Below, in pieces: positions 4,474 to 46,233 of a stretch of DNA of 64,000 nucleotides; position 1 is the first letter of the stretch; the number at the start of each line of letters is the position of its first letter. The notes under the pieces are model-generated. The model had not been told where the DNA came from. It saw nothing but the letters and a program-made list of their open reading frames with translations, and searched no databases. This DNA is from Candidatus Latescibacterota bacterium. Its GTDB lineage: Bacteria; Latescibacterota; UBA2968; GCA-2709665. The stretch covers positions 4,384,001-4,448,000 of the forward strand of contig CBDCOX010000002.1 in the NCBI GenBank assembly GCA_965219995.1, in the 5' to 3' direction. The position numbers and the translations under genes are program-made.

Positions 4474-5859
4474 CTATTCGACTCCCACGACACAACGAAA
4501 CCCGACGTCGGACCGTCTTGCGTCGGACTCCGCCCAGGACGCGCCAGTACATTTCGCCCGCTTTTCATCGTCCAGCCACGAGCCGCCGTAGATTGCCCGA
4601 AGTTCCCTCTTGTTTCCATACCATCCGTCCACCCATTCCCATACGTTGCCGACCATGTCCCTGACGCCATAGACGTTGGGAGACCCCTTTGCAACTTCCG
4701 ATGCGCCCGCGTCCCAGGCCAGGCCCGTTCGGCCCCTGGCGGGATCATAACGCTTGCCGTAGGAATAGATATCGCCCTTCTCACCCAGACATGCCGCAAC
4801 CCATTCTTCAGACGTGGGCAGCCTCTTGCCGAGGGAACCGCAGTAAGCCCGCGCCTGTTCGTGTGTGATTCCGGTGGCGGGCATTCGAGGCCCGCCCGAA
4901 AACTCATCCGGTCTGTAACCCGGATCGAACGCCCGGAACGCTTCGACGCTGACTTCGTGCGGATCGATGAAGAAGGTCTGGAACGCGGAGGTCTCGATTT
5001 TCAGCATGCCTTCGACCTTTCTGGCAAAAGCCGCTGCCACTCGCTCCGCCTCGGCCGCACGAGCCTGTTCTTCAGCAAGTTCGACTTCCCGCGCTGTTTT
5101 TGCCTTTGCTTCGATCTTGGCCTTCCGGGCCTCCTCAGCCGCCCTGATGGCGGCTTTGCGGCGCGCGGCTTCCCTGCGAACCCGCGCCTGAATCCTGCGC
5201 CGGGCCTTCGCCTCTGCCTCTGCCAGCCGAATCCGATCGGCGTCCGTAAGAGTTCGCGCGCACCGAAATCCGTAATTCAGCGATTTCAAATCGACTTTGG
5301 CCCGTCTGGCGGAGCCGCACCGCGTCAACCTCGGACCGTCCGTCCAGGAACCGCCGTACACTTTCTGCATTCCGCTTTTCGCGCCGGCGTCGTCCACCCA
5401 CTCCCACACATTTCCCGACATATCATACAGCCCCGCTTTATTCTCTTCGTAGCTCATTACCGCCTTGGGTCCGTCGGTCCAGTTCTTCCGGCCCACCCGT
5501 GCGAGGTTGGGATCGAAGTTGTTTCCGTAGGCATAAGCCGATCCCTCGATTCCGCCGCAGGCCACGACCCACTCGTCCGATGTCGGCAGGCGTTTGCCCT
5601 GCGCCTCGCAATACGCCCTTGCCTGAGTGAACGAGATTGCCGTCGCCGGCATCTTCGCATCTTCGAAATAGGTGTACGCCGGGTGATAATCCGGATCGAA
5701 TGCCTTCATCTGCTCGACCGTCACTTCGTGCCTGGCCATATAGAATCGTTCCTGCCCGGACTGCACCAGGACCATTTCGTCTCCGGGCGGCTGAGCGGGA
5801 ACCGCCCACGGAATGAATCCAGCCGCAACCGTTATCGCGAAATGTGCTATCCACCGCAC
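4474..5859 (-). CDS. Tandem SUMF1/FGE-sulfatase-fold protein with Ala/Arg/Glu-rich helical linker
   Basis: Two copies of HEV(T/S)V...KRLPTS.EWV.AC...DM.GNVWEWV...GGSW...GFRC; start (GTG 5859) uncertain. Confidence 0.85.
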   Translation of the reverse strand: MRWIAHFAITVAAGFIPWAVPAQPPGDEMVLVQSGQERFYMARHEVTVEQMKAFDPDYHPAYTYFEDAKMPATAISFTQARAYCEAQGKRLPTSDEWVVACGGIEGSAYAYGNNFDPNLARVGRKNWTDGPKAVMSYEENKAGLYDMSGNVWEWVDDAGAKSGMQKVYGGSWTDGPRLTRCGSARRAKVDLKSLNYGFRCARTLTDADRIRLAEAEAKARRRIQARVRREAARRKAAIRAAEEARKAKIEAKAKTAREVELAEEQARAAEAERVAAAFARKVEGMLKIETSAFQTFFIDPHEVSVEAFRAFDPGYRPDEFSGGPRMPATGITHEQARAYCGSLGKRLPTSEEWVAACLGEKGDIYSYGKRYDPARGRTGLAWDAGASEVAKGSPNVYGVRDMVGNVWEWVDGWYGNKRELRAIYGGSWLDDEKRAKCTGASWAESDARRSDVGFRCVVGVE

Positions 5860-5860
5860 C

Positions 5861-6856
5861 TCAAAATTCCCCGAGCAATTCCTGGCGTTCGTCGCCTTCG
5901 CCAAGAATCAGGCTGATGTCCCATTCGTATTGGCCGTTGGCCGGCGCCACACCGCAGGCTTTCAATCCCCACGCGGTATCCAGACGATCGACCTGCGACG
6001 TGGAGGGCTCCAGCGCCGCGTGATGAAGGTTGTTCCATCCGCCTTCGTTAATCCACAAGCCCAGGTGCGAGAGCTTTTTGGCGGGAAACAGGAAACCGAT
6101 AAATTCCCCGTTCGGATAAACCAGCGCACAGCGGCCCTGCTCCAGCCGCGTGGAAAAAAGCTTCTCGGCCTCTTTCGTGCGGCTGGACCGGATCGAGGAC
6201 CGGTTATAGTCCTTGTCCAGGGTCAGATCCGTTACTTTGGGCCAGACATGCCGTGTCATTGGCGGCCCGAGGCGGTCTTCCGTACTCATGTAGGACACCA
6301 CGTCGGTTCCGGAAGGCATCAGGACGCGCGAGCGGGTCTCCACCTTGAACAGCGGGTGGAACGCATAGACGAACGGCATGTCAAACGGGCTTTCATTCTG
6401 AACCGTATAGGAAAACCGAATATACGGCTTTTCGCCGCGTGCCAGCGTTTCGAAGCGGACCTCGCGTTTGAACACATAGGGAAGCCGCACGCCTCGCACC
6501 CACATCTGCAGGCGTCCCTGTTTGACTTCATACTCCCAGGGAAGCGTCCATACCTCTCCATGATCCGGAATCGGCGTGCCTTCCCACGGAAAAGCAGGGT
6601 ACGGACAGGCTTCGACGGTGGGAAAACACTCGTCCGCGCCGTCGCGTTCGTAATTCTCGAAGCGGTCCGCGTAGGTCCGGCGTCTGTGCGGGATGCTCGT
6701 GCGTGACAGAAACTCACGCCCGGTCGCCTTATTGACAAGAGAGGTTATCTTGCCGCCCAGTTCGGGTACGACAACGAGGGAGAAGAATTCGGTGTCCAGC
6801 TTTATTCCCGAAATATCCGGCGTCAGCTCCACCTCTTCCAGCTTGAATTTTTTCAT
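5861..6856 (-). CDS. Aldose 1-epimerase / galactose mutarotase-like protein
   Basis: VVPELGGKITSL, GADECFPT, PDHGEVW, YAFHPLF, ALEPST motifs; GAAGGAG RBS. Confidence 0.8.
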   Translation of the reverse strand: MKKFKLEEVELTPDISGIKLDTEFFSLVVVPELGGKITSLVNKATGREFLSRTSIPHRRRTYADRFENYERDGADECFPTVEACPYPAFPWEGTPIPDHGEVWTLPWEYEVKQGRLQMWVRGVRLPYVFKREVRFETLARGEKPYIRFSYTVQNESPFDMPFVYAFHPLFKVETRSRVLMPSGTDVVSYMSTEDRLGPPMTRHVWPKVTDLTLDKDYNRSSIRSSRTKEAEKLFSTRLEQGRCALVYPNGEFIGFLFPAKKLSHLGLWINEGGWNNLHHAALEPSTSQVDRLDTAWGLKACGVAPANGQYEWDISLILGEGDERQELLGEF

Positions 6857-41187: not shown

Positions 41188-42402
41188 CTACTGACTCAAC
41201 AGGCGTTTCCATCCCCGTGGGACGGCATTGGTTTCCAGCAGCATCAGCACGGCCTGCCGCTGCGCGGTCTCCAGGCTGTCGTCCCGGGCCTTCCAATAGG
41301 CGTCTCCGCGGCGGGTGGCGTTCGGACGCATCGAAAAAGCGTCCCGGGTGAAGACGGAATCGTGTAGCGCGGGGTTCAGCGTGTAGCCGCCAATGCGGGT
41401 GGTCTGTTCGGCCACGGCGCCTGTGCCGGTGGTAATGCGCACGGTTTGCAGAACCGGCAGCCAGTAACGGTCGTAATACAGCGCGTTTTGCTGATAAGTG
41501 CGCAGTTCCTCGACGCCGAGCGGTTTTCGCCCCCTCTTGTTCAACCGCAGGTCGTAGCCCACCAGCGAGAAGTCGTCTGCGGAGATCCAGATCGCCCCTT
41601 CAAGTCCGGGGTTTCTCTTCTTACTCGGCTCGACGCGAATCCTGTGCACAGCCACGTCGCCCATCTGTACGGTTCCGACCAGACGATAGCGGTAATTCTC
41701 CCGGGCGTCGGAGGCCAGCGGAAGCGGACCCACGTCGAAATCGCGGCCATTGAGGCGGCCGCTGCGGATATTGACGATCACGCCGGGATGCATGCCGAAC
41801 TGCTGCGCAGGCGCCTGTCGCGATCGGTACGCCGTGATGACCTGGACGATCTCTCCCGGACTCCGATAGTACCCCAAACCATCGAACTCGATGCGAGCGA
41901 GGACACTTGAACCGGCGCCGGCGGCGGCGTACAAGGTCTGAGTACCCCGCAACGTGAAACGATGCGTTTGGAGATCCGCGTAGCGCGTATGGAAGACGTT
42001 CTCGCGGGGTTCCCGGCCTGCTTCGTCGAGGAGCGCCTTGAGGGACGGTCGCGGAAGGTCGACGTGTGACTTGAGGGGAATGGGAGACGGGGAGAGCAGG
42101 ATGTCCAGCGGGCTCTCCGGAGCCGCAACCGAGTCAATCTCCCGCAGTGCGGTCCGATAGCCCACCAGGGAGACCCTGAGGCGGACCGGGCCCGCGGGCA
42201 GGCGAGAGACCGCGAATCGGCCATGCAGGTCCGTATGGTCCCCCCGCTTGAGTTCCGGCAGGACAACCGTGGCGTACGGAAGCGGCGCGCGCGTCGCACT
42301 GTCTCTCACGGTGCCGGTCAGGGTCGCCGGGTGCGTGGGCGCCTGAAGGAAGTGCAGCGCGATCAAGCCGGCGATGACGTTAGAAAAAAGCCGCGCGGAC
42401 AT
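41188..42402 (-). CDS. Exported protein with carboxypeptidase-regulatory-like domain
   Basis: Signal peptide; LTGTVRDSAT..PLPYATV...TD..GRF....VSLVGY; G.IWI...DF.L. Confidence 0.7.
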   Translation of the reverse strand: MSARLFSNVIAGLIALHFLQAPTHPATLTGTVRDSATRAPLPYATVVLPELKRGDHTDLHGRFAVSRLPAGPVRLRVSLVGYRTALREIDSVAAPESPLDILLSPSPIPLKSHVDLPRPSLKALLDEAGREPRENVFHTRYADLQTHRFTLRGTQTLYAAAGAGSSVLARIEFDGLGYYRSPGEIVQVITAYRSRQAPAQQFGMHPGVIVNIRSGRLNGRDFDVGPLPLASDARENYRYRLVGTVQMGDVAVHRIRVEPSKKRNPGLEGAIWISADDFSLVGYDLRLNKRGRKPLGVEELRTYQQNALYYDRYWLPVLQTVRITTGTGAVAEQTTRIGGYTLNPALHDSVFTRDAFSMRPNATRRGDAYWKARDDSLETAQRQAVLMLLETNAVPRGWKRLLSQ

Positions 42403-43593: not shown

Positions 43594-43677
43594 AAATTAT
43601 GGAAATCCCCCGGGATTGTCAAGCGGGTGGCGGGAAATGGTACGGGTTTGACAAAAGGGCTCGTTCACTTGTATATT
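43594..43677. promoter_or_regulatory. Back-to-back sigma70-like promoters for bioF and lnt-tatC
   Basis: Plus: TTGACA(43648)-18-TATATT; minus: TTGACA(43622)-17-TAATTT. Confidence 0.55.
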
Positions 43678-43822
43678 CCAGACTGTTCATCCGGGCGGGG
43701 ATCAACCGGACCGGTTGGCGGGACTCGCTGCTTGCGGCCAACCGGTTTTTCTGTCCCGTAACCCGCAACATGACAACGCGGCCGCCCGGAAAGCGGCGGA
43801 AGGGCTCGGAGGGACCGGAATC

Positions 43823-46144
43823 ATGGCGGAGGCACGGCAGGGCGCAGACTGGAAATGGATGGCGCTGTTTCCCGCGGTTTCGGGCCTTGTGCTCGGCGCG
43901 GCATTTCCGCCTCTGCCTCTGGGTTTTCTGTCTTATGTCGCGCTGATCCCGCTGCTGCTTGCGGCTGAGCGGCTGCACGGCAGGGCGGCATTCGGCGCCG
44001 GTTTCATTCAGGGGATCTTCTTCTACGGTGTCACGCTATACTGGATCGGAACGATCACGCCGCCCGGCATGGCCGGAGCGGTTTTTTATATGTCCCTGTT
44101 CCGCGGCCTGTTCACGTGGGGGTTCGCCCGTGTCGTTGCGCGATATGGCGGTGCGGGGTTGTGGAGCGCGCCTTTCCTCTGGGTGGGGTTGGAATATTTC
44201 AACTCTCTGGGCGACATGGGGTTTCCATGGGTCGTGCTGGGAAGTTCGCAAACGGCCTGGCTGTGGCTGATCCAATATGCCGAAGTGACGGGGGTGTACG
44301 GGGTTTCGTTCTGGATCGTGGTGGTCAACCTGAGCGTCCTGATGCTCTGGAGGAACCGGGTGCGGCGCAGGATATGGGTTGCGGTCCTGGCGGCCCTTTT
44401 TGCGGGCCCGGCGGCAAACGGGTATCTGGCGTTGAAGGAGGTTCCGGAGGAACATGCCGTGACCGTGGGCGTGGTCCAGCCGGATATGCCGCCGGTGGCC
44501 AAGGAATACCGGGGATTCGATTACAATTTCGGCAAGCTGAAGCCGATGACCGTGGAAGCCGCGGGGCAGGGAGCAAAGCTAGTGGTGTGGCCCGAGACGG
44601 CGGTGGGCTATCTGAAAGGGGAATTGTACCGGCACCATCGCGAGCGGGTGCAGGCAATGGTGGACTCGCTCGGCATCCATCTCTATACGGGAGCATACAG
44701 ACTGGAAGCCGGCGACCCTGTAAAGGTCTTCAACTCCTCGTTTCTGTTCGCGCCGCGCAGGGGGATCACGGGACACTACGACAAGACTCGCCTCGTACCG
44801 TTCGGCGAACGCGCGCCGTTCCCCGAATTGCTGCCCTTTCTGCGAAAGATCAGGTTCACGGGCGGCGGTTTCGTGGGGGGCAACTGGGATTCCGGTGTGA
44901 CCCGGACGGTCTTCGAAGGTCCCGAAGGCCGCTTCTCCGCGCTGATCTGTTACGATTCGGTCTTTCCCGGATTTGCACGGTCCTTCGTGGACCTGGGCGC
45001 CGAGTTTCTGGTGATCATTACCAATGACGGCTGGTTCGGCAGGACTTCCGGACCCTTTCAGCATGCCGAGGCGGCTGTGTTTCGCGCCATCGAGAACCGG
45101 CGCGACGTGGTGCGCTGCGCGAATACGGGCGTTTCCACGTTTATCGACGCCTATGGACGGAAATCGGGGACGACCGGGATCTTCCATCCGGCGGTCGTGA
45201 CGCAAGGGGTGACGCCCCGAACCGCAAAGACGTTCTATACGAGATACGGAGACCTGTTCGGCCAGCTTTGCCTGGTGTTGGGCGTGATTCTGGTGTTGGT
45301 GTCCTTTCGCGGTCATGCGATGGATGCATCCCATTCCATACTGCCACCGGACGCCGAAACACCCGCCGGACGCGCCCCCAAACCGAATTCAGGCGCCGAC
45401 GACAGCGCAATGCCCTTTCTGGATCATCTGGAGGAACTCCGCTGGCGCCTGTTAAAGGGACTGGCGGCCCTCACGGTCGGCGCCGTGATCTGCGGGATAT
45501 TCTCGGACAATATCCTTGGGTGGCTCGTGCTGCCTGTCCGGGAAGCGACCCCTGTCATGAAGCTGTTGGGCGTGACGCCGGTCGATCCGCCGGTCAAGCT
45601 GATCTATTTGAAACCGATGGGGATGTTTCTCGTCAAACTTCAAATCGCCCTTGTCGGCGGGGCGATCCTGGCGCTGCCGGTTCTCCTGTATCAACTGTGG
45701 ATCTTCGTTGCGCCGGGTCTGTTGACAACAGAGCGGCGGTACGTATCTTTTATTGTATTCTCATCGTCGATCTGTTTTGTCCTCGGTGGCGCCATCGCTT
45801 ACGTGAGCGTGGTGCCGCTGTCGTTTCGTTTCCTTATTCTGATCGGCGAAGGGACCGGGGTCGACCCCCAGTTTGATATCGGCTTCTACATCGGTTTCGT
45901 GCTGAGGCTGCTGGTTGCCTTCGGGGTTGTCTTCGAGCTTCCGGTAGCGGCGTTCTTCCTGAGCCGGATCGGTCTGCTGACCGCGGACCGGATGCGTTGG
46001 GGAAGGAGGTACGCGGTTGTGATCGGTTTTGTGCTGGCCGCGCTGCTGACGCCGCCGGACCCGATCTCCCAGCTGATGATGGCGCTCCCGCTGGTACTGC
46101 TTTACGAATTCAGCATCTGGGTGGCGCGTGTTGCCGGCAGATGA
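43823..46144 (+). CDS. lnt-tatC: Fusion of apolipoprotein N-acyltransferase (Lnt) and twin-arginine translocase subunit TatC
   Basis: Lnt triad motifs VWPETA, YDK.RLVPFGE, LICYD, plus TNDGWFG and ANTGVS; in frame with TatC MPFLDHLEELR, W.FVAPGL, FELPV, LTPPDPISQ; GGAGG RBS. Confidence 0.9.
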   Translation: MAEARQGADWKWMALFPAVSGLVLGAAFPPLPLGFLSYVALIPLLLAAERLHGRAAFGAGFIQGIFFYGVTLYWIGTITPPGMAGAVFYMSLFRGLFTWGFARVVARYGGAGLWSAPFLWVGLEYFNSLGDMGFPWVVLGSSQTAWLWLIQYAEVTGVYGVSFWIVVVNLSVLMLWRNRVRRRIWVAVLAALFAGPAANGYLALKEVPEEHAVTVGVVQPDMPPVAKEYRGFDYNFGKLKPMTVEAAGQGAKLVVWPETAVGYLKGELYRHHRERVQAMVDSLGIHLYTGAYRLEAGDPVKVFNSSFLFAPRRGITGHYDKTRLVPFGERAPFPELLPFLRKIRFTGGGFVGGNWDSGVTRTVFEGPEGRFSALICYDSVFPGFARSFVDLGAEFLVIITNDGWFGRTSGPFQHAEAAVFRAIENRRDVVRCANTGVSTFIDAYGRKSGTTGIFHPAVVTQGVTPRTAKTFYTRYGDLFGQLCLVLGVILVLVSFRGHAMDASHSILPPDAETPAGRAPKPNSGADDSAMPFLDHLEELRWRLLKGLAALTVGAVICGIFSDNILGWLVLPVREATPVMKLLGVTPVDPPVKLIYLKPMGMFLVKLQIALVGGAILALPVLLYQLWIFVAPGLLTTERRYVSFIVFSSSICFVLGGAIAYVSVVPLSFRFLILIGEGTGVDPQFDIGFYIGFVLRLLVAFGVVFELPVAAFFLSRIGLLTADRMRWGRRYAVVIGFVLAALLTPPDPISQLMMALPLVLLYEFSIWVARVAGR

Positions 46145-46233
46145 GCCGGGGCTGCGATGCAGGCGTTCCCCTACGCGCCCGGTGCCCGATCTGCGTCCGC
46201 GAGGCGATGTAGACTAACGAGGATTTGTCTTTA

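Follow-up and report, generated by a model that had tools for sequence, protein, structure and literature searches.

An apolipoprotein N-acyltransferase fused to TatC in a lineage of Latescibacterota

Lnt and TatC are both well-studied proteins of envelope biogenesis, and we know of no work that links them functionally. Lnt comes last in its pathway, after Lgt and LspA have freed the substrate from its signal peptide and hence from TatC; it takes an acyl chain from a phospholipid and leaves a lysolipid. Each protein reportedly occurs in other fusions: the Lnt-Ppm1 protein of Mycobacterium tuberculosis is said to be a natural Lnt fusion with a different partner, and the haloarchaeal tandem TatC fusion (TatCt) and engineered E. 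coli TatB-TatC and TatC-TatC fusions are said to indicate that N-terminally fused TatC can work. Here we describe a gene in which complete Lnt and TatC modules share one reading frame. It lies in a 64,000-nucleotide stretch (the window; C2:4384001-4448000, GenBank contig CBDCOX010000002.1) of a Candidatus Latescibacterota genome (G000; 98.6% complete, 2 contigs).

Set against solved Lnt enzymes of E. coli and P. aeruginosa (5n6h, 5vrg, 8b0k, 5n6m), the Lnt part shares whole-chain alignment, fold, domains and the Glu-Lys-Cys triad, but is only 23-26% identical, carries a 277-residue C-terminal extension (linker plus TatC) and is known from sequence. The TatC part resembles TatC of Aquifex aeolicus (4b4a/4hts) and the cryo-electron microscopy structures of E. 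coli and Nitratifractor TatBC/TatAC (9dzz, 9e01, 9e02, 9e07) in its full profile match, its fold and the presence of TatA elsewhere in the genome; it differs in that its N-terminus is tethered to an 8-helix enzyme instead of being free. In TatCt and the engineered Tat fusions the partners are Tat components, whereas the present partner is an enzyme belonging to a different pathway. The Lnt fusions Lnt-SNase, PAP2-Lnt, Lnt-LEA_2 and Lnt-Ppm1 indicate that extra domains are tolerated at the cytoplasmic ends of Lnt, but no partner among them is a translocase subunit.

The frame runs stop-free on the + strand from TTG 43715 or ATG 43823 to a stop at 46142-46144 in the open reading frame list. Because ATG 43823 is the common start position in 24/24 aligned homologues and GGAGGG stands 9 nt 5' of it, we prefer the reading of 773 amino acids (aa), laid out as Lnt (aa 1-496), linker (aa 497-529) and TatC (aa 530-773). 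A first-pass annotation of the window had described just this, a complete Lnt, a 33-aa Pro/Ala/Asp-rich linker and a complete TatC, and the open reading frame list, Pfam and NCBIfam bear it out. The features are as follows.

43648..43677, + strand: promoter-like site TTGACA-18-TATATT (11/12), a consensus match only, upstream of the fused gene
43808..43813, + strand: Shine-Dalgarno-like GGAGGG, 9 nt before ATG 43823; the 16S 3' tail of the genome has CCTCC
43823..46144, + strand: fused lnt-tatC open reading frame, 773 codons plus stop (open reading frame list, Pfam, NCBIfam, homologues)
43880..44332, + strand: LNT_N membrane domain, aa 20-170 (PF20154, 1e-30), helices in the AlphaFold2 model
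44465..45160, + strand: periplasmic CN_hydrolase (nitrilase-like) domain, aa 215-446 (Pfam PF00795, 1e-27)
44594-44596, 44783-44785 and 44948-44950, + strand: catalytic residues E258, K321 and C376, within the CN_hydrolase domain
45254..45301, + strand: last Lnt transmembrane helix, aa 478-493 (model helix H478-493, matched to the C-terminal portion of solved Lnt chains), returning the chain to the cytoplasm
45311..45409, + strand: disordered cytoplasmic linker, aa 497-529, rich in Pro, Ala, Asp and Glu
45410..46141, + strand: complete TatC module, aa 530-773, beginning with the invariant MPFLDHLEELRW (Pfam, NCBIfam and structure matches)

Both Pfam matches of the Lnt part (PF20154 and PF00795) exceed their cut-offs, and the lnt equivalog TIGR00546 scores 319.5 bits (cut-off 132.9; profile positions 2-394/395). 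In the TatC part, PF00902 spans aa 534-756 over its whole profile (1-208/208, E 1.9e-66) and the tatC equivalog TIGR00945 scores 199.2 bits (cut-off 132.7). TatC usually stands free as a protein of ~250 residues, and here it forms the C-terminal third of a 773-aa frame; this is a difference of architecture that leaves family membership unaffected. Promoter-like sites numbered 2 by consensus matching, against 0.9 expected.

Across 110 aligned fused proteins, E258, K321 and C376 are invariant (110/110), confirming the intact triad noted in the first-pass annotation; we take these residues to be the equivalents of E267, K335 and C387 of E. coli Lnt. Equally invariant in the TatC part (110/110) are M530, E537, R540, P571, E637, D746 and Q750, of which the last six presumably correspond to E15, R17, P48, E103, D211 and Q215 of E. 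coli TatC, residues of the signal-binding site and polar cluster. An AlphaFold2 model built from the 110 fused sequences has a mean predicted local distance difference test (pLDDT) of 83.9, with values <50 only at residues 1-5 and 499-530. In sequence alignments to solved structures, query residues 20-504 match 25-518 of 522 in a solved Lnt chain (E 2e-32), and the TatC part, residues 530-772, matches 1-231 of 249 in Aquifex aeolicus TatC (E 3e-38). Foldseek searches with the model gave TM-scores (target) of 0.82-0.84 to 20 Lnt entries from E. coli and P. aeruginosa and, for the six-helix glove-like TatC fold, of 0.90 to 4b4a and 0.88 to 4hts. Basic residues follow the last Lnt helix, and the ends of Lnt are presumably cytoplasmic, as in published structures; the alignments agree with the earlier suggestion that the cytoplasmic ends of Lnt and TatC are topologically compatible. 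At each distance compared, the TatC half is better conserved than the Lnt half (identities of 95 vs 87%, about 59 vs 57% and about 49 vs 38%). To judge from these alignments and the model, both modules look functional. A predicted-complex run of Lnt 1-500 against TatC 526-773 with 110-row alignments gave a score of 0.00 against a mark of 0.32 and, the controls not having been folded, is evidence neither way.

The Lnt-TatC fusion is real and conserved throughout its lineage. A domain-architecture search, suggested in the first-pass annotation, found CN_hydrolase plus TatC in 116 of the best 120 clusters drawn from 5.8 billion proteins (112 with LNT_N, CN_hydrolase and TatC, 4 with CN_hydrolase and TatC, and 4 with Lnt alone), at identities from 94% down to 39%; several of the fused proteins come from 4-8 Mb contigs. 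The same architecture is represented in the ESM Atlas by a 53-member cluster. At 50% clustering, the best 150 of 1.84 billion proteins include just two fused representatives, and the fusion therefore seems limited to its own lineage. We then determined the state of lnt and tatC in a sample of 151 genomes of the window's phylum. In the window's own family, 18/19 genomes have the TatC match within a frame of 769-841 aa that contains no stop; the 19th (G133) is cut by a contig end and retains residues 261-773 in one frame. The order's sister family has a stop-free fused frame, of 713-821 aa, in 30/30 genomes, and many of the 49 fused-frame genomes of the order are single-contig chromosomes.

Database names for the fused proteins are 'apolipoprotein N-acyltransferase' or 'hypothetical protein', and hundreds of entries under the former name hide the sole TatC of their genomes. 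Since these entries are named only after Lnt, automated surveys would score such lineages as lacking TatC or would miss the architecture. No description of an Lnt-TatC fusion was found in the full-text literature, supplementary tables not being covered, and in the available part of a 2013 TatC survey that includes one Gemmatimonadetes genome (PMC3827258) the words 'fused' and 'fusion' occur zero times. The fusion is present in public databases, where it is abundant, and is apparently undescribed; the first-pass annotation, whose author knew of no fusion of Lnt to TatC, was right as far as the full-text literature was searched. The records themselves carry mixed labels: of the same-genus records (L010-L012), some bear Latescibacterota in their titles and others Gemmatimonadota. 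Despite these titles, the fused organisms form one class in the coded genome taxonomy. Runs with near-identical sequence are labelled as sponge, coral and marine metagenomes (X5-X20).

In its own genome the fused gene is the only TatC match and the only Lnt above cut-off, settling the earlier question about further copies of either gene. Being the only Lnt and the only TatC, it must supply both functions, for all lipoproteins and for all Tat substrates. No tatA is adjacent, as had been remarked of tatA and tatB: the single TatA_B_E match of the genome, a 74-aa TatA, lies at C2:1226789, 3.2 Mb away, and among 29 candidates in this genome it is the only match, with no second TatA-family gene of TatB type. 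Lgt (C2:2934593) and LspA (C2:1682955) are each single and unlinked to tatC. The LspA (Peptidase_A8) match, C2:1682955-1683359 (-), belongs to an open frame of 298 aa, roughly double the length that is usual for signal peptidase II.

A census of signal peptides in this genome, from home-made gene calls (3856 open reading frames) and regular expressions, found 130 lipobox signal peptides, of which 3 are also Tat-like; 44 Tat-like signal peptides by a relaxed motif, of which 3 also carry a lipobox; and 5 by a strict motif, of which 1 does. The relaxed Tat list includes obvious false positives such as the first helices of RND-type transporters, and the lipobox count leaves out a few Cys-boxes with A or T at -3. 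Even allowing for both, predicted Tat lipoproteins are a small minority of either set. The genomic context thus predicted, with one gene each for Lgt and LspA and some 130 lipobox signal peptides, fits lipoprotein N-acylation, and the Tat side has its predicted counterparts in one TatA and the 5 strict or 44 relaxed Tat-type signal peptides.

To trace the origin of the fusion, we compared it with relatives in which the genes are separate. A set of loci fetched with the pattern MPFLDHLE, and biased accordingly, includes 26 (L010-L035) with Lnt directly upstream of TatC, 19 of them fused and 7 split. By contrast with these Lnt-linked loci, 53/53 other TatC loci (L036-L088) have no Lnt within 3 kb upstream; 52 are labelled as other phyla (Calditrichota, KSB1, Marinimicrobia, Zixibacteria and others) and one, L052, as Latescibacterota. 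The split pairs of the window's class (for example L025, L028, L031, L033 and L035) have the same genes in the same order, at identities to the fusion of 38-47% (Lnt) and 44-53% (TatC), but encode two polypeptides. In L031, L033 and L035 the lnt stop overlaps the tatC start as ATGA; in L028 the genes overlap by 20 nt; and L025 has an in-frame TGA with the tatC ATG 4 nt beyond it. In L034 (= G147:C1), a closed genome, ~1.9 kb (4540-6420) is inserted between lnt and tatC. The opposite strand of this insert, possibly an insertion sequence, contains a long open frame; the tatC of L034 keeps a 60-residue upstream frame.

All split forms have an acidic stretch of 22-31 residues ahead of the conserved MPFLDHLEELRW, tatC starting at an upstream Met. 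The fusion linker therefore corresponds to a former N-terminal extension of TatC, and the invariant Met530, which is internal in the split relatives too, is an internal TatC residue and not a retained start. Within the genome sample the states of the two genes are distributed as follows.

Own family (f1), 19 genomes: fused 19 (one cut by a contig end), split-adjacent 0, apart 0, undetermined 0
Sister family (f2) of the same order, 30 genomes: fused 30, split-adjacent 0, apart 0, undetermined 0
Families f3 and f4 of the same class, 64 genomes with a TatC match: fused 22, split-adjacent 33, apart 5, undetermined 4
Other classes of the phylum, 28 genomes with both genes placed: fused 0, split-adjacent 0, apart 28

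The first-pass annotation had let its reading hang on whether relatives show a stop or frameshift between the domains: none does in the order (49/49 genomes), but the sister families of the class do have split-adjacent pairs (33/64), including four genomes of genus g16 with only an in-frame stop between the genes. The f3 and f4 genomes with the genes apart are G079, G088, G095, G147 and G099. In the other classes lnt and tatC are on separate contigs or, in G009, separated by 2.4 Mb.

In a maximum-likelihood tree of 65 distinct loci (40 fused, 25 split; 'quick' mode, LG+G4, SH-aLRT support only), 4 changes between fused and split are needed and starred branches force all 4, against an average of 20.1 when labels are shuffled; two long-branch joins are flagged, one with the fused L138, and the 4 changes could be 3. 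For this tree 7 duplicates were removed, and 10/75 distinct loci missed by the motif patterns (L034, L089, L090, L092, L102, L105, L111, L112, L130 and L142) were left out. With fused clades sitting inside a split background and unlinked genes in the outgroup classes, the simplest history runs from unlinked genes to an adjacent, overlapping pair and then to fusion, at least four times. An adjacent, overlapping and probably translationally coupled lnt-tatC pair is thus ancestral to the class, and fusion came about through loss of a stop codon or of a frame boundary.

The linker itself, the 33 residues GHAMDASHSILPPDAETPAGRAPKPNSGADDSA at aa 497-529, is highly variable. Across 110 homologues it measures 20-81 residues (median 38) and is composed chiefly of P (16%), E (14%), D (13%) and A (13%). 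Comparison of window positions 45311-45409 with the same region of P0001-P0056 revealed short motifs that differ by sub-clade: the window's own family has [ST]ILP, its sister family EGTVPAI/EGTVASI and L(P)DxGKP, and a third group DDWLDEPxAPDxDxP. A distant fused clade (L021, L029, P0069, P0093, P0099, P0105) has linkers with varying copy numbers of an acidic, His-containing unit, roughly E-A-D-H-D-x, a pattern that looks like repeat expansion and contraction.

What is established here is the architecture of the protein, its conservation, its single-copy status and its evolutionary origin. As to function, we think it probable that this is a bifunctional inner-membrane protein of two autonomous modules that arose from a translationally coupled gene pair; we infer that both modules are active while fused, without obligatory mechanistic coupling. 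In such a protein the N-terminal Lnt, with its membrane domain and periplasmic nitrilase-like Glu-Lys-Cys domain, would end in the cytoplasm, and a flexible, acidic 33-residue linker would lead to TatC, the twin-arginine signal-peptide receptor, beginning in the cytoplasm. The Lnt module would N-acylate every lipoprotein after Lgt and LspA, and the TatC module would form a minimal TatAC translocase with the single, distant TatA. The covalent link would then add obligatory 1:1 co-synthesis, co-insertion and co-localisation, not a dedicated pipeline for Tat lipoproteins. As the sole copy of both genes across an order, the fusion offers a natural way to ask if TatC still functions when a large enzyme is attached to its signal-binding end, and if lipoprotein N-acylation and Tat export share a spatial organisation.

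Several points weigh against two merely autonomous modules. Class-wide linkage with repeated fusion is the classical Rosetta-stone signature, and linkage across the class together with at least 4 independent fusions may reflect selection for an interaction rather than mutational ease. Motifs conserved within sub-clades of an otherwise variable linker hint at more than a passive tether. According to the available part of one report (PMC13323110), the Tat core as solved is a trimer, (TatBC)3, at whose periphery transport is inferred to take place; the membrane around it is strongly thinned, and the N-terminal end of transmembrane helix 1 of TatC touches the TatB amphipathic helix and the signal peptide. 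Three tethered Lnt modules at the periphery of such a trimer could help or hinder transport, and their being tolerated is not explained by autonomy of the modules. The census is crude, being based on regular expressions with visible false positives in this genome. Finally, processing of the product, or internal initiation at the invariant Met530, is possible, the 773-aa polypeptide being a prediction from the gene.

The best-surviving alternative is the one that the first-pass annotation had favoured, a coupled export and maturation unit in which folded lipoproteins exported by Tat emerge beside the tethered Lnt and are N-acylated on the spot, export and maturation being channelled. The class-wide linkage and repeated fusion just mentioned speak for it, as do the conserved linker motifs, the existence in this genome of some signal peptides that are of Tat type and also carry a lipobox (such as ...TRRDFIGSTLVGAGATLLSGC and ...DRRKFLKTAGAVGAAGMLVGC) and the proposed site of transport at the trimer periphery (PMC13323110, as far as available), where a module on a tether of 20-81 residues would sit. 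However, this Lnt and this TatC are the only ones in the genome, and the overlap between their predicted substrates is small (3/130 lipobox and 3/44 Tat-like signal peptides, 1/5 by the strict motif), so that the count of Tat lipoproteins called for earlier came out low, at 3 in both sets. In the order of the pathway, moreover, Lnt acts after Lgt and LspA, whose genes are unlinked to tatC; split relatives manage without a covalent link; and Lnt is also fused to the unrelated SNase, PAP2 and LEA_2. We therefore regard an export and maturation device as doubtful, and functional coupling of any kind as unlikely overall, although a weaker coupling of Lnt and TatC by co-localisation is possible. 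A more speculative form, to which we give slightly less credence still, has three Lnt modules ringing the Tat exit site and N-acylating Tat lipoproteins as they leave or, more boldly, has the lipid chemistry of Lnt shaping the thinned membrane for TatA assembly. If it were true, linkage and repeated fusion would be the Rosetta-stone signal of an unrecognised Lnt-Tat interaction, maybe one that also occurs between the separate proteins elsewhere.

Less probable than coupling is that the fusion exists at the level of the gene only, with TatC made also or mainly as a separate protein through initiation at Met530 (ATG 45410) or proteolysis in the linker. That Met530 is invariant in 110/110 fused proteins although it ends a hypervariable linker would suit such an arrangement, and the linker, being disordered, would be exposed to proteases. 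Yet the same Met stands in every TatC motif of the fetched loci (a set biased by the pattern MPFLDHLE), where it is internal, following a coding-looking extension with an earlier Met; its presence inside split and standalone TatC weakens the case for Met530 as a start codon. As the first-pass annotation had observed, there is no stop between the domains, and a scan of positions -18..-5 found no 4-mer Shine-Dalgarno sequence before ATG 45320 or ATG 45410. Shine-Dalgarno sequences are in use in this genome, the 4-mer occurring at 1639/3855 predicted starts vs 501/3855 control positions. We also considered a Shine-Dalgarno sequence hidden in the E/D/G-rich codons before Met530 and rejected it as a general feature: a clear GGAG occurs in just 1/19 fused loci (L013). 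Consensus matching found no promoter-like site between 45000 and 45410, and in the lack of a stop codon, ribosomes on lnt must continue into tatC. We consider separate production of TatC improbable, and still favour a single bifunctional protein.

Reads across the junction were checked, as the first-pass annotation had proposed. Contigs from four public runs aligned to the window show no indel over 44600-46200, and the junction is bridged by two of them, an RNA-library contig (45008-45559) and a DNA contig (45225-45558). Three metatranscriptome runs contain 5-14% of the sampled words; RNA-library contigs carry no information on the ends, strand or level of transcripts, and such libraries may also contain DNA. 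An artefact of sequencing or assembly, in which two genes were joined by a lost stop or a frameshift, can be dismissed, even though a single stop or frame shift separates split relatives from fused ones and genome G000 has an estimated contamination of 7.6%, because the frame is uninterrupted in 49/49 sampled genomes of the order, 116/120 of the best database clusters are fused and four independent runs show no indels across the junction.

Some further variation in Lnt and TatC came to light in these comparisons. Other natural Lnt fusions are Lnt-SNase (P0190, 688 aa), PAP2-Lnt (P0196, 735 aa) and Lnt-LEA_2 (P0166, 622 aa), and two Lnt proteins of 826-842 aa (P0168, P0169) have 350 C-terminal residues without a Pfam match. 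The first periplasmic loop of TatC (aa 571-598, 45533-45616) varies between 15 and 86 residues across the 110 fused proteins, and the distant fused clade carries a ~60-residue insertion there; unrelated periplasmic inserts in TatC are mentioned for other bacteria in the available part of PMC13323110. In the split locus L090 (G045), the TatC frame extends 215 residues upstream through a Pro/Ala/Gly-rich, low-complexity stretch, which may be an unusually long N-terminal extension of TatC. In other classes of the phylum, TatC matches lie in open frames of 406-464 aa in family f10 (G006, G012, G022, G027, G032, G036, G038, G040, G044, G046 and G048), of 522-562 aa (G017 and G042) or of 553-653 aa (G029 and G031), far above the usual TatC length; these long frames may be extensions, other fusions or merely open upstream frames.

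Among the genes neighbouring the fused frame, none is related to Tat or lipoproteins. One neighbour at 41188-42402 (-) encodes CarboxypepD_reg-like domains and part of DUF5686, and further neighbours in the window include a SpoU methylase, a class I/II aminotransferase (BioF-like), a Na/Ca exchanger and dTDP-sugar enzymes.

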